Below are positions 36,612 through 63,921 of a stretch of DNA of 64,000 bases, piece after piece; position 1 is the stretch's first letter; each line of letters starts with the position of its first letter. The translations under genes were made by a program, and so were the position numbers. Source of the DNA: Myxococcota bacterium (GTDB lineage Bacteria; Myxococcota; XYA12-FULL-58-9; JABJBS01). The DNA lies in the NCBI GenBank assembly GCA_036339465.1, contig JAYZAY010000033.1, forward strand, positions 32,001-96,000, given 5' to 3'. The notes under the pieces are model-generated. The model searched no databases and had not been told where the DNA came from. It saw nothing but the letters and a program-made list of their open reading frames with translations.

Positions 36612-39245
36612 ATGGGACTCATCGGCAACTTCTCTCTCTTGGCCAACGAGCTGGTTAACATTTACTACAATGAAAACCATCCTCTAGTCAGCACTGAGAC
36701 GGGGCGAACTTGGAATAAAAGACCGCTGACCTTCGGCCGCTGGCTGGAGAAAAATAAGAAAACGGCACAAAGTGTCTTAGACGACGCTTTTCTCTTAAAC
36801 CGAGTGTCGCGGGATTTATTGATGGATATAGGTATCCCCCACCCAAGCCAACATCAACTACACGAAACGCGATTCGCCCTATCGGTCGCAGTTAAAAAAG
36901 ATAAATTCGAAGACTTTACCTCCCCCACAATCCAGGGGGTTCTTGATGTCGAATTCGGCTCCGATTGCTGCTCCGGAAACGTTTTCTTTGAACGCGAAGC
37001 TTACGGTTCCAGGGCTCTCACTTCCGAAGCCTTGAAACTCTCAAAACGCAACAAGTATCGTTTGAAAACCGGCTATGCCGATGGCTGCCTAGGACAAGTC
37101 GTTGCGGCGACTTTTATCAGTGGTTCCAATCGGTCAAGTAGCGATTTTAGCCACGCCTACGGCGATGAGCCATGGGCATGTTACCTTCAAGCCTGGAATA
37201 TGCTTGACCAAATCCCACAAGGTCAATTCGTCGAAAACCTAGACATCGATATGATCACAAAAACAAATAAGCTCATCCATGCCCCCGATCCACGGGGAGG
37301 CTCAATCTTCTATCGAGCAGTTGGTGCCGTCACCCGAGGTAGACTTGATGTCGCAGGACGAATCAGGGAAGGTAGAACCCTCAGTCAAATGTATACCTTC
37401 ACCCACGAAGAGATTAAGAATCTAACTGAATTAGGAATTAGCTTTTACGGACTTCCAAGTCTCGGCTCATCAACTCAATCCGGTATTATGGAATATCCAG
37501 CCCCAACCGTCATTCGCGGTCGCATGCAAGAACTCATCGATGAGCTTAAAGAAGAGCTCGCAAAAGAAGATGCAGACGTCATTGGCCTTGCTGCTAAATT
37601 TTGTCGAGAACTCGTCGCGATTCACCCCTATGAAGACTCAAACGGTCGTATGGCTCGAGTCCTGATGAATAGAATTCTCATGGACTTCGGCTACCCCCCT
37701 GCAATTCTCTCCCACGCCGATAAGGACTTAACCATGGACGCAGAGTCCTGGAGAGAAGAAGTTCTAGAAGGAATCGCCCATACAAAAAGATATCTGGATA
37801 AAACAAACCTCTTCTCAAATGACCGCTTACTCGGAAAAGAAAAAATCATAATCCCCGGATACTCTGGCCCCAAAACTTTCAGCTTATCTGGTCTTCCATT
37901 TTGTTTGGGAACCGACGGATTCATCTACGACGTCACAGGTCGTCCCCACCTCGCTGATGGAGATGAGATCAAGCCTTTGTCTCAGCTTGAGTACTACGGT
38001 CTTGCTCGACGATTTATCGCTTTGCCCAAATACCAGGCGATCGAGAAACTCCAAGAACTCACGGCAAAAACACGCGCCCTCGTCGAAAAAGTCACACAAG
38101 GAACTATCGATGGAAGTACGGTCGCAGTTGGCGATGACAAATCAGCCCGCGAAGCCGATAGTAAGTTCTCAATTCGCGGCGATTCTTTCATTATGGAACG
38201 ATTGATCGACTTGATGGATGTGGACAACATCAATCTCTCAAATATTTTTCAAATTCATCAGGCTAGGGGTACTAAAATGTCATCCCTCATGAGCAAATAC
38301 AACCAGTTAGACCACGAATATTGGTCTATCGAAAATACCCTGAAATCGGTGGAAAACTCTAAGCTTGCGGCGATGGTTCATGTCCAAAGAGAAAACTTCT
38401 TTGCTAAAGCCAAGGAAAAACTCGAAGGATATATGCCTCAGGACCCCAAGTCAGAGCAAAACCCCCACGGCTTTCACTACACCTCTGAACAACTCATGTA
38501 CCAACGAAGCCCTCTACGTTTTGCCTCCCTAGCTGACGCCATCAAACACGACGGCGATGACAACGTCACCATTTGGCGAGGCGACTATGCTTTTGCACGA
38601 GCCATTGGCATGGCCCCCAACAACGACCCGAGACAACCCGCTGCACGGAAGCATGCCCAAGCGAAATTTGAACGTCACACGGTTCCTCACCTACTTCAAG
38701 AACTCAAGGCCCTAGAGCAAAGTGGCATAGGGTCACACTACATTTCTCATACCACCGACCTATCCTTACTCACAGAAAAGTTTGCAGAAAAAGAAAAGTC
38801 CACCACCATTAACCTAAGCCCCTTCCCATCTATCGTGGTTTCGGGAATTAAATCCGTGCTTAGCGACAATACCAAAACTCAAAATACAATGACTGCTCTG
38901 GCTCCCATCTCAACAAAGATTGGCGTATCAATCCGCAATGCTTTGACTGTTCCCTCCGATATTTTGGGCCTACGTCAAGGCAAAAGCAAAGGAGACACCC
39001 TTGAAATCGTGGCGACTCGAAAAGCCTTCGAATTGAATGTCGCCAAAAAGTCTATTATACCCGGCATGCTCTCGCTCTCCGGTAGCCATCCATTTGCCAA
39101 CGAACAAGAAGTCCATGGACTGGAGTACGTAAGCCCATTTGAGATTTCTGCGACCTACACTTCCGACCAACTCAGAAAATCCCTATTGGTAGAAGTTTCT
39201 CCCTCATCTTATGAGACCACCCCTGATATGGACAAAACAGCCTAA
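36612..39245 (+). CDS. Fic-domain protein with a putative C-terminal R-S-E ADP-ribosyltransferase domain
   Basis: GAGGA RBS and Fic motif HPYEDSNGRMAR. C-terminal IWRGD, YISHTT and HPFANEQEV. The ART call is less certain than the Fic call. Confidence 0.8.
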   Translation: MGLIGNFSLLANELVNIYYNENHPLVSTETGRTWNKRPLTFGRWLEKNKKTAQSVLDDAFLLNRVSRDLLMDIGIPHPSQHQLHETRFALSVAVKKDKFEDFTSPTIQGVLDVEFGSDCCSGNVFFEREAYGSRALTSEALKLSKRNKYRLKTGYADGCLGQVVAATFISGSNRSSSDFSHAYGDEPWACYLQAWNMLDQIPQGQFVENLDIDMITKTNKLIHAPDPRGGSIFYRAVGAVTRGRLDVAGRIREGRTLSQMYTFTHEEIKNLTELGISFYGLPSLGSSTQSGIMEYPAPTVIRGRMQELIDELKEELAKEDADVIGLAAKFCRELVAIHPYEDSNGRMARVLMNRILMDFGYPPAILSHADKDLTMDAESWREEVLEGIAHTKRYLDKTNLFSNDRLLGKEKIIIPGYSGPKTFSLSGLPFCLGTDGFIYDVTGRPHLADGDEIKPLSQLEYYGLARRFIALPKYQAIEKLQELTAKTRALVEKVTQGTIDGSTVAVGDDKSAREADSKFSIRGDSFIMERLIDLMDVDNINLSNIFQIHQARGTKMSSLMSKYNQLDHEYWSIENTLKSVENSKLAAMVHVQRENFFAKAKEKLEGYMPQDPKSEQNPHGFHYTSEQLMYQRSPLRFASLADAIKHDGDDNVTIWRGDYAFARAIGMAPNNDPRQPAARKHAQAKFERHTVPHLLQELKALEQSGIGSHYISHTTDLSLLTEKFAEKEKSTTINLSPFPSIVVSGIKSVLSDNTKTQNTMTALAPISTKIGVSIRNALTVPSDILGLRQGKSKGDTLEIVATRKAFELNVAKKSIIPGMLSLSGSHPFANEQEVHGLEYVSPFEISATYTSDQLRKSLLVEVSPSSYETTPDMDKTA

Positions 39246-39298
39246 ACCTGGCAAAACAGTAAAACAGTAAAACATGTACTACAAAAATGGAGATAGTC

Positions 39299-39529
39299 AT
39301 GGCGGGTGGTCCAAATGCACAGTTTGTCATGTGTATGCAGTGTGCAAGTAAGTCCACTAGAATAGACGAAGGAGATAAAATAGATAAGTATCTCTGCGAT
39401 CAGAATGGACACGAATTCAGCCAAGATTGGTCTCAGGAGGGGCCACCTTCTAAGCCCGAGTGGCCTCCCAGTGTGCAACGCCTCAGGGCCTATCATGATA
39501 AGTACATCACGTTTCCGAAAAACACCTGA
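39299..39529 (+). CDS. Small putative Zn-binding protein, candidate antitoxin/immunity factor
   Basis: GGAG RBS before ATG 39299. Contains CMQC...CDQNGH and TRIDEG. Confidence 0.6.
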   Translation: MAGGPNAQFVMCMQCASKSTRIDEGDKIDKYLCDQNGHEFSQDWSQEGPPSKPEWPPSVQRLRAYHDKYITFPKNT

Positions 39530-63231: not shown

Positions 63232-63366
63232 TGCTTATATCCTTCGAGAAATTGTTTCAACCGCCCCTATTCTCTACACCTCTATGTCTATACGGGTTCG
63301 AGTTTATTTAAAAAGTATGGATGTCGATGTGAGCTAACCCACACCCAAACAGTCCCCAAGACTAGG

Positions 63367-63921
63367 CTAAATGGCCGCGCTTCGAATCGCTTCTAAACCT
63401 TCGATTCTCTTACTTAATTGATGGCTGTCCGGATGGTTACTCAACACGGCCCGAGCCTGTTTCAAACTTGCATCAGCTGCGTCATTGCGATTCTGATACA
63501 TCAAGCATTCAGCCTTATAGGCATGGGTCATCGCGTCATTGGGATCCAACTTCCTGGCGATATCATAATAACCAACCGCCAATGGATAAAGCTTCAACCG
63601 CTGATAGCAGATCCCCACCAACTGATAATAACGCGCTTCGTCAGGTTTCAAGAGTAAGAGATAGGCACAAACCATCATAGCGGCCTGATATTTTTTCAAT
63701 TCCACGTAATTACATGCCACCCTATAGCCCGCATCGAGCTCTTCATCGGAAAGGTCTGCTATTTCTTGCATGGTGATCCGGCCATCCATAAAGGCCGAAT
63801 TGAGTTGGTCCAAAACCCCTTCCAAGGCGGGAAGCTGCTCCATGTCTTCCAGGGAAAGATTGGAACCGGCATCAAACTCCAGCCCCTTATCCTTCATATC
63901 CTGGGCGATATTCTTCACCAT
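63367..63921 (-). CDS. SycD/LcrH-family (class II) T3SS translocator chaperone
   Basis: ITMQEIADLSDEELDAGYRVA followed by three TPRs (LLLLKPDEARYYQLVGICYQ, LDPNDAMTHAYKAECLM). Confidence 0.85.
   Translation of the reverse strand: MVKNIAQDMKDKGLEFDAGSNLSLEDMEQLPALEGVLDQLNSAFMDGRITMQEIADLSDEELDAGYRVACNYVELKKYQAAMMVCAYLLLLKPDEARYYQLVGICYQRLKLYPLAVGYYDIARKLDPNDAMTHAYKAECLMYQNRNDAADASLKQARAVLSNHPDSHQLSKRIEGLEAIRSAAI

Follow-up and report, generated by a model that had tools for sequence, protein, structure and literature searches.

The window analysed here is a 64,000-nucleotide stretch of an uncultured member of the Myxococcota (genome G000, contig C33, positions 32001-96000), and our subject is a minus-strand unit in which probable type III secretion system (T3SS) translocon genes are followed by a pair of genes related to BpsA, the N4-bis(aminopropyl)spermidine synthase. 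The assembly amounts to 4.17 Mb in 102 contigs and is 92.8% complete. It belongs to an uncultured order of Myxococcota represented by 22 genomes, itself included; 40 relatives were searched overall, 21 of them from this order. A listing of open reading frames (ORFs) and scans with Pfam and NCBIfam models form the basis of the gene map. DNA of the window was met again in marine and seawater metagenomes.

Read in the direction of transcription, the unit starts outside the window with the tip-like coiled-coil gene D347 (L001:1631-2674). It is followed by a tandem SycD/LcrH chaperone gene (63367-64482, extending beyond the window end at 64000; L001:367-1482) and by three ORFs: T1 (62056-63231, 391 aa), a probable major translocator of the SctE/SseC-like type; T2 (61138-61983, 281 aa), a probable minor, SctB-like translocator; and T3_790 (58749-61121, 790 aa), hydrophilic and rich in Lys and Glu. 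After a gap of 72 bp (58677-58748) come U386 (57516-58676, 386 aa), a degenerate paralog of the BpsA-like enzyme found by profile comparison, and Bps485 (56167-57519), a BpsA-type aminopropyltransferase matched by Pfam BpsA_C. All of these genes lie on the minus strand. The first-pass annotation of this DNA had described the same succession as a chaperone, three translocators, a 72-bp gap and two BpsA-like genes. The succession holds, but only two of the three proposed translocators are hydrophobic in the expected way.

Class II T3SS chaperones usually consist of a single TPR domain of about 160 aa. The chaperone of this locus departs from that size, being 371 aa long. It exceeds the cut-off of the LcrH_SycD model TIGR02552 (124.9 bits against 104.8), is also matched by TPR models of Pfam, and is a covalent tandem of two SycD-like domains, since it matches the model in two stretches that span both halves. 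Full-length tandem homologs of about 365-380 aa are found in 20 of the order's 21 other genomes, which elsewhere contain SycD-like genes with a single domain as well.

The gene for T1 lies directly 3' of the class II chaperone gene, and its product carries a hydrophobic stretch at residues 246-315, as expected for a major translocator. Its score against SseC (PF04888) is 21.0 bits, under the gathering cut-off of 30.2, and a homolog linked to it by jackhmmer (L024:15636-17099) passes that model with 36.4 bits. T2 has one Gly/Ala-rich hydrophobic segment (residues 172-201), as expected for a minor translocator, and its homologs are placed after T1 in relatives; no family model matched it, and the SctB-like label rests on the segment and on gene position. 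T3_790 contains no hydrophobic 19-mer and matches no Pfam or NCBIfam family. The proteins encoded at its position in relatives form one family, none of which T3_790 itself matches at E 1e-3. It is probably a secreted substrate or effector and not a membrane translocator.

The model of D347 (pLDDT 62) has helices at residues 182-237 and 286-335 and a small beta region. Foldseek returned no match for it at E<=1e-3, with SipD at rank 50; a VIA wide search placed IpaB 74-242 on top with a Z of 9.1, a value that generic coiled coils also reach; and the family profile gave nothing meaningful against PDB sequences. Upstream of D347 on the same strand, past the window end, lie genes for a GT47 exostosin-type glycosyltransferase and a methyltransferase (L001:2888-5161). 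Together with the glycosyltransferase genes of the window, the GT47 gene places sugar-modifying genes on both sides of the translocon operon in this genome; none of the kind was seen in the loci of relatives. In one relative (G002:C114), two D347-like genes upstream of the translocon operon flank a SirB-family gene (L093:3562-3951; PF04247, 'invasion gene expression up-regulator', E 1e-37).

The core of a non-flagellar T3SS is encoded on another contig of the genome, C64, as a cluster of the I-J-K-L-N-O-P-Q-R-S-T-U type with a short SctJ-type lipoprotein and matches to YscO-like and T3SS-ATPase models. A sigma-70-family protein of the cluster is also encoded on this contig (C64, 38144-38956). 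The first-pass annotation had named a lack of T3SS core genes among the findings that would tell against it; given this cluster, that objection falls away. Flagellins, FliF and a second T3SS-type ATPase are encoded in the genome as well. A tblastn search for a second translocon cassette in the genome found none. The needle protein model PF09392 matched nothing in this genome and nothing in the control genomes either, and is uninformative. The inventory of export genes (C64:39000-50300, C59:3664-5811 and C18) is uneven: there are two T3SS-type ATPases, and both FliF and the short SctJ-type protein, yet one FliP, one FlhB-family and one FHIPEP gene, the last of these solitary on C59 and flanked by unrelated genes. 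Either a gate for flagellar export is encoded in the 7% of the genome that was not assembled, or a single gate is shared.

Bps485 scores 31.7 bits against Pfam BpsA_C (PF01861; cut-off 27), and its family profile matches the solved N4-bis(aminopropyl)spermidine synthase 5xnc over the catalytic core (E 1.3e-28). Bps485 and the 14 homologs aligned with it all carry GDDD, TDPM and GQCP.LPE without change, TDPM standing where BpsA has TDPP. Homologs align from residue 37 onward, and the probable start of the gene is a GTG at 57519 that overlaps the stop codon of U386 as GTGA. From its conserved residues we infer that Bps485 is an active BpsA-type aminopropyltransferase.

For both genes of the pair, family alignments were made from relatives, with 15 sequences for Bps485 (A1) and 14 for U386 (A2). 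Comparison of the two by hhalign (98.5%, E 1.6e-15, 319 columns) shows the two proteins to be paralogous at the level of profiles. At the GDDD site the U386 family retains no more than D.DG, and at TDPM nothing is conserved; U386 is, judged from its sequence, a catalytically degenerate BpsA-like paralog. The two proteins are predicted to form a complex via their C-terminal domains, with a score of 0.63 against 0.00 for the best control; in the benchmark of this score, 116 of 157 solved complexes and 2 of 215 mismatched pairs came up to that mark. Prediction runs share at least 49% of contacts, and the partner pLDDT is at least 50. The first-pass annotation had proposed two paralogous pairs, this one and U354 with U404 on the plus strand. 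BLASTP was blank in all four pairings between them; the paralogy lies within U386 and Bps485, reaches U404 at best weakly and U354 not at all.

Homologs of Bps485 (26-34% identity) occur in 20 of the 40 relatives and in 18 of the 21 other genomes of the order. The DNA surrounding them was fetched and its ORFs were labelled by BLASTP and jackhmmer. In these loci an ORF for S-adenosylmethionine (AdoMet) decarboxylase (AdoMetDC; E 1e-25 to 1e-34), with the SESH processing site retained, lies directly upstream of the pair, and it is often preceded by a homolog of U202. In the window, U202 (49641-50249, plus strand) encodes an acyltransferase of predicted GNAT fold: its AF2 model (pLDDT 69.7, pTM 0.69) gave 70 Foldseek matches in the PDB at E<=1e-3, GNATs throughout those listed, with 9iy3 on top (1.8e-5) and SpeG at 1.1e-4. 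U202 has no Pfam match, and its family profile found nothing meaningful among PDB sequences. With the decarboxylase and the U202-like GNAT upstream of the pair, it is therefore reasonable to speak of a polyamine module made up of GNAT, decarboxylase, degenerate paralog and aminopropyltransferase. Of the 22 genomes of the order, 19 encode an AdoMet decarboxylase (PF02675).

Many genomes of the order hold two AdoMet decarboxylases, one scoring about 130 bits elsewhere and one scoring about 90-107 bits inside the module. A module-type copy is also present in G009, where no Bps-like gene was found. In G021 (contig C405, L039:3-1385) a gene for a flavin amine oxidase stands immediately upstream of the U386-like/Bps-like pair, a hint that polyamines may be oxidised there. 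A cytochrome-c-like gene beside Bps in family f3 was considered as a mark of an ancestral insertion and dropped, its similarity to 33209-34918 of the window being 26% in one domain.

The distance between the module and D347-like or tandem-SycD genes was scored across the order, in 19 of whose genomes a Bps-like gene was found. The two are within 8 kb on one contig in 12 genomes (G000, G001, G003, G004, G006, G007, G008, G011, G012, G016, G018 and G020) and probably linked across contig ends in two more (G014 and G021); in G005 and G019 the arrangement was undeterminable. In most cases the module is divergent from the D347-like or tandem-SycD genes. The genes on its far side vary by family (YdjM, S41 peptidase, LexA, BipA), and the adjacency is retained in families f1, f2, f3, f4, f7 and f8.

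A promoter-like motif, (C)A(A/G)CC-N16-GTGTA, lies upstream of D347-like genes in 15 of 17 genomes. The form A[AG]CC-N16-GTGTA, derived from this gene class, was scanned over 30 loci (443 kb) and gave 38 matches, with about 6.8 expected under uniform composition; other spacings from 10 to 22 gave 0-7 and seven permuted motifs 0-11. By manual assignment to gene classes, 31 of the 38 are directly upstream of D347-like (14), T1-like (7) or AdoMetDC/U386-like (10) genes. As the D347-like genes are the class from which the motif was derived, it is the 7 T1-like and 10 module sites that are independent of the derivation. Among the latter, the site of G017 precedes a U386-like gene and the rest precede the decarboxylase; the unlinked operon of G013 is one of the ten; and GTGTA stands 9-15 nt before the ATG in most. 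Four of the remaining matches fit D347 or T1 sites with misplaced ORF calls, and three are unexplained. A relaxed search before U202, KS and APH genes gave nothing convincing. Three loci of family f3 (L024, L025 and L094) have two tandem T1-like major-translocator genes, each with its own copy of the motif.

In the genome under study the motif lies before D347, and a variant, AACC-N15-GTGTA, before T1; there is none before U386, U202, the NRPS, Fic, APH and 2OG genes or the PLOD-type glycosyltransferase gene of the window (all described below). The gap between T3_790 and U386 contains no terminator-like site. A scan of 46-64 kb for sigma-70 promoters and terminators was uninformative, promoter-like sites being fewer than in shuffled sequence and terminator-like sites about equal.

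The plus strand of the window carries a block of a different kind. It opens with a gene for an 877-aa Fic-domain protein (36612-39245; Pfam PF02661), followed by a nonribosomal peptide synthetase (NRPS) of C-A-T organisation (39708-42977) and by a polyketide synthase (PKS) part consisting of KS-T, with a 285-aa C-terminal part of no assigned family (42974-45508), and AT-T (45469-47241), all identified from domain models. U354 (47220-48284) overlaps AT-T and U404 at its start and stop, the orphan U404 (48281-49495) sharing 4 nt with it. U202 is next on the plus strand, and between the two converging units come a 2-oxoglutarate (2OG)-Fe(II) oxygenase (50278-51213, minus), an APH-type kinase (51396-52289, plus), a PLOD/LH3-type glycosyltransferase (52302-53204, minus), an amidohydrolase (53573-55024, minus) and a GT2 glycosyltransferase (55157-55879, minus), these five assigned with Pfam. 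ORF calls and Pfam bear out most of the layout first described, with overlap-coupled ORFs behind NRPS, KS and AT on the plus strand and tailoring genes between the units.

The NRPS has its core motifs (HHCLLDG of the C domain at 157, A-domain models, LGGDS of the T domain at 1008), and the AT domain carries GHSLG. The KS keeps its Cys (GCSS). Of its two His motifs, HGTGT and a second one, neither was found, and SANGI and VGNIGG stand at the equivalent places, as judged by eye without a reference KS alignment. The C-terminal 285 aa of KS-T matched nothing among PDB sequences. No orthologs of NRPS, KS-T or U404 were found in the 21 other genomes of the order, where the best NRPS and KS-T matches are 25-32% identical and on other contigs. 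U404 found only itself among 5.8e9 clusters (word-indexed) and 1.84e9 representatives (HMMER), and has no Pfam match at E<=1. It aligns with the Bps485 family by hhalign at a probability of 34% (E 4.2e-4), and an Atlas match to BpsA_C clusters reached 0.91 with 201 of 256 features shared and a structural TM of 0.43. With GDLAL where BpsA has GDDDL, U404 is at best, and weakly, a degenerate orphan of the BpsA_C/methyltransferase fold. U354 had no match in Pfam, NCBIfam, hhalign or Atlas.

The PLOD-type glycosyltransferase matches the LH3 glycosyltransferase domain and mimivirus R699 (E 1e-32); the 2OG oxygenase matched nothing among PDB sequences. The pairing of a lysyl-hydroxylase-type glycosyltransferase with a 2OG oxygenase modifies protein lysines in animals and giant viruses, and in the window the two genes lie near each other (50278-53204). 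None of the tailoring genes has homologs in the loci of relatives except for APH-like genes in L029 and L034, the second of which (G003) also carries a different KS, a KS plus thiolase-like protein.

The canonical Fic motif is HxFx(D/E)GNGRxxR. The protein of the window scores 44.9 bits against PF02661, matches the Fic domains of FICD and IbpA at E 5e-8 to 1e-5, and has a variant motif, HPYEDSNGRMAR, in which Y replaces F and S replaces G; it is a possible effector. The first-pass annotation had called it a Fic-ART gene. The Fic domain was detected, and no ART domain was found in Pfam (E<=1), NCBIfam (E<=0.01) or PDB sequences, and a loose R / S-T / E-x-E spacing was noted by eye only.

In independent marine metagenomes this arrangement recurs piecewise at 99% identity, and one of them holds a relative that is roughly 90-95% identical. 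The recurrence of these pieces argues that the NRPS/PKS block is real; its distribution is narrow. With the conserved module it has nothing in common but the relocated GNAT U202 and the degenerate U404. The idea of one system joining T3SS and NRPS/PKS genes is not borne out by co-occurrence in the 21 other genomes of the order, and a single system that includes NRPS/PKS and Fic rests on adjacency in one lineage. Elsewhere in the window, two large overlap-coupled ORFs of 871 aa (weak serine-hydrolase match) and 694 aa (no family) lie next to metG (24529-29225), and GC skew is negative in all 2-kb bins of 1-64000 (-0.08 to -0.29) irrespective of the coding strand.

The reading that we prefer, with a probability of about 55%, is that of a translocon operon with a BpsA pair at its 3' end, a dedicated polyamine being made together with translocon expression and the NRPS/Fic block being a separate add-on. 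The minus-strand unit would be the tip-like/chaperone/translocator operon of a T3SS, to whose 3' end the pair of an active Bps485 and a degenerate U386, predicted to bind it, would have become fused. In relatives the pair forms an operon with its own AdoMet decarboxylase, with the GNAT just upstream and a motif in common with tip-like and translocator genes. A dedicated polyamine, possibly N-acylated, would then be made whenever the translocon genes are expressed. In the genome under study the module would be without its own decarboxylase and promoter copy, and co-expression would come from translocon read-through instead of a separate promoter; the pair, 72 bp from the translocon genes on their 3' side and separated from them by no terminator-like site, would stay co-expressed with them. 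The Fic gene, NRPS/KS/AT with U354 and U404, and the tailoring genes would form a species-specific block placed beside the locus. The link between translocon and BpsA-like module is genuine and conserved, and probably regulatory in nature; that the polyamine contributes to secretion is what we infer from it. A bolder version is doubtful: that the tip and translocon depend on the product of a dedicated, pseudoenzyme-partnered BpsA, either a special polyamine for pore assembly or gating or an aminopropyl group on a secreted protein, which the NRPS would extend here to an acyl-polyamine.

A number of observations weigh against the preferred reading. No AdoMet decarboxylase was found in the 92.8%-complete genome under study (PF02675, tblastn), the enzyme that would supply the decarboxylated AdoMet donor, and the predicted binding of U386 to Bps485 may in part owe to its likeness to BpsA oligomers already solved. 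The motif was not found, also on relaxed search, before the modules of G001, G002, G004, G008, G012 and G031, nor was it found in the C64 core cluster. In the genome under study it is rarer than chance (22 matches genome-wide against 63 expected), so that its specificity cannot be shown from this genome; the strict form CA[AG]CC-N16-GTGTA has 3 matches genome-wide, none at T3SS genes, and as looser motifs fall below chance no regulon can be drawn. An RNA run (X20) yielded four contigs of 151 nt on Bps485 and T3_790 that may be DNA carry-over, and no contig among those listed bridges 58676-58749. In G017 the module lies beside a D347-like gene only, and in G013 and G002 it is unlinked. The Bps485 query found no Bps-like gene in G009 (95% complete), G015 (84%) and G010 (65%) despite their chaperone genes, and in G009 and G015 the whole translocon cassette is kept. 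Finally, related genomes are not independent observations.

Much of this would also fit an inherited neighbourhood without coupling, in which the module serves general physiology, such as stress or the stabilisation of membranes and nucleic acids, and merely shares a common type of alternative-sigma promoter. We regard this as a possible explanation, with perhaps one chance in four. It gains from G009 and G015, where the translocon operon occurs and no Bps-like gene was found with the query, from G010, where the same is true of the chaperone, from the unlinked operons of G013 and G002, and from genomes outside the order in which Bps-like (G031, G040) and SycD-like (G025, G034) genes occur independently; in part, then, the components do occur apart, the outcome that the first-pass annotation had named as telling against it. 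The motif may also reach beyond T3SS genes. However, mere inheritance sits less well with an adjacency that lasts in six families (f1, f2, f3, f4, f7 and f8) while the outer flanks differ, or with a 16-nt spacing that is identical at three gene classes and kept on the unlinked operon of G013. Most genomes also have a second, higher-scoring AdoMetDC elsewhere, which makes the module copy look dedicated and not housekeeping, and in the genome under study the pair stayed directly behind the translocon genes after rearrangement. The earlier proposal that the BpsA-like pair is tied to the secretion cassette is supported by conserved neighbourhood and, in relatives, a shared motif; its extension to the NRPS/PKS genes is not.

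That extension would have all enzymes of the interval cooperate on an acyl-amino-acid/polyamine group, to be joined to tip or translocator proteins or delivered along with them. It can draw on the GNAT of the module, which now closes the NRPS operon next to a BpsA_C-like protein, on KS-like and APH-like genes inside the module region of G003 and an APH-like gene in G017, on the lysyl-hydroxylase-type glycosyltransferase and 2OG oxygenase in the interval together with a Lys-rich T3_790, and on the roughly 90-95% identical strain from another marine metagenome, which has pieces of both blocks. It is nevertheless unlikely: NRPS, KS-T and U404 are without orthologs in the order and the glycosyltransferases, oxygenase and amidohydrolase without homologs in the loci of relatives, no shared motif precedes the seven gene starts checked in the block, both catalytic His motifs were not found in the KS, and the KS of G003 has a different architecture. 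Least probable of all, and very improbable in our view, is that the BpsA-like proteins have ceased to be enzymes and are now chaperones or, as had also been suggested at first, structural or regulatory parts of the T3SS. The loss of the acidic GDDD in U386 and U404, the AdoMetDC that was not found in this genome and the place of the pair directly behind genes for secreted proteins would agree with such a change of role, which is a poor fit to a Bps485 family in which GDDD, TDPM and GQCP.LPE are unchanged, to a profile that matches solved BpsA over the catalytic core, and to relatives in which the pair is co-operonic with a decarboxylase keeping its SESH site.

If the link between translocon and polyamine module is functional, it would offer a genetic handle on the role of polyamines in type III secretion, and a BpsA-type enzyme with a dead-paralog partner outside thermophiles. 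In uncultured marine Myxococcota the motif presents itself as a possible promoter of late T3SS genes, and the covalently fused tandem translocator chaperone, kept across a bacterial order, emerges as a further point. A literature search turned up no account of a polyamine synthase that is encoded alongside translocon genes and apparently shares their regulation.

The locus resembles the chaperone-translocator operons of known injectisomes (sicA-sipBCD, ipgC-ipaBCD, lcrH-yopBD) in that a SycD/LcrH TPR chaperone gene stands directly before genes for a two-hairpin major and a one-segment minor translocator, with a long coiled-coil protein alongside and the core apparatus encoded elsewhere in the genome. 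It differs from them in its 371-aa covalent tandem chaperone, in having the tip-like gene first, in a third gene that encodes a fast-diverging hydrophilic protein, and in the polyamine enzymes attached to the operon. Flagellin and pilin glycosylation islands likewise have modification-type enzymes adjoining genes for secreted surface-structure proteins; here, however, the product of the conserved enzymes would be a small molecule (a polyamine), and conservation in relatives does not extend to the glycosyltransferases. For the pairing of enzyme and degenerate paralog there is a parallel in trypanosomatids, whose AdoMetDC is activated by a pseudoenzyme paralog, the 'prozyme'. In both cases an active enzyme is encoded beside a dead paralog, which here is predicted to bind it. 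The two cases differ in enzyme family and in organism, and activation of Bps485 by U386 would be an analogy with that system.

With BpsA of Thermococcus and Thermus, Bps485 shares the catalytic core and motifs and, in relatives, a neighbouring gene that would supply decarboxylated AdoMet. Polyamines of the N4-bis(aminopropyl)spermidine type are found mainly in thermophilic groups, according to a review (PMC12979288), whereas the host here is a marine member of the Myxococcota, outside those groups. The proteins here also measure 440-485 aa, with extra N- and C-terminal domains, have TDPM for TDPP, and are paired with a degenerate paralog in a translocon neighbourhood. The closest precedent for a role of the polyamine in secretion comes from Salmonella, in which a polyamine-depleted strain is reported to fail in needle assembly and effector injection (PMC11299824). 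The polyamines there come from general metabolism and uptake, and no dedicated synthase encoded with, or controlled like, the translocon genes is known there; the likeness lies in the link between polyamines and injectisome function.

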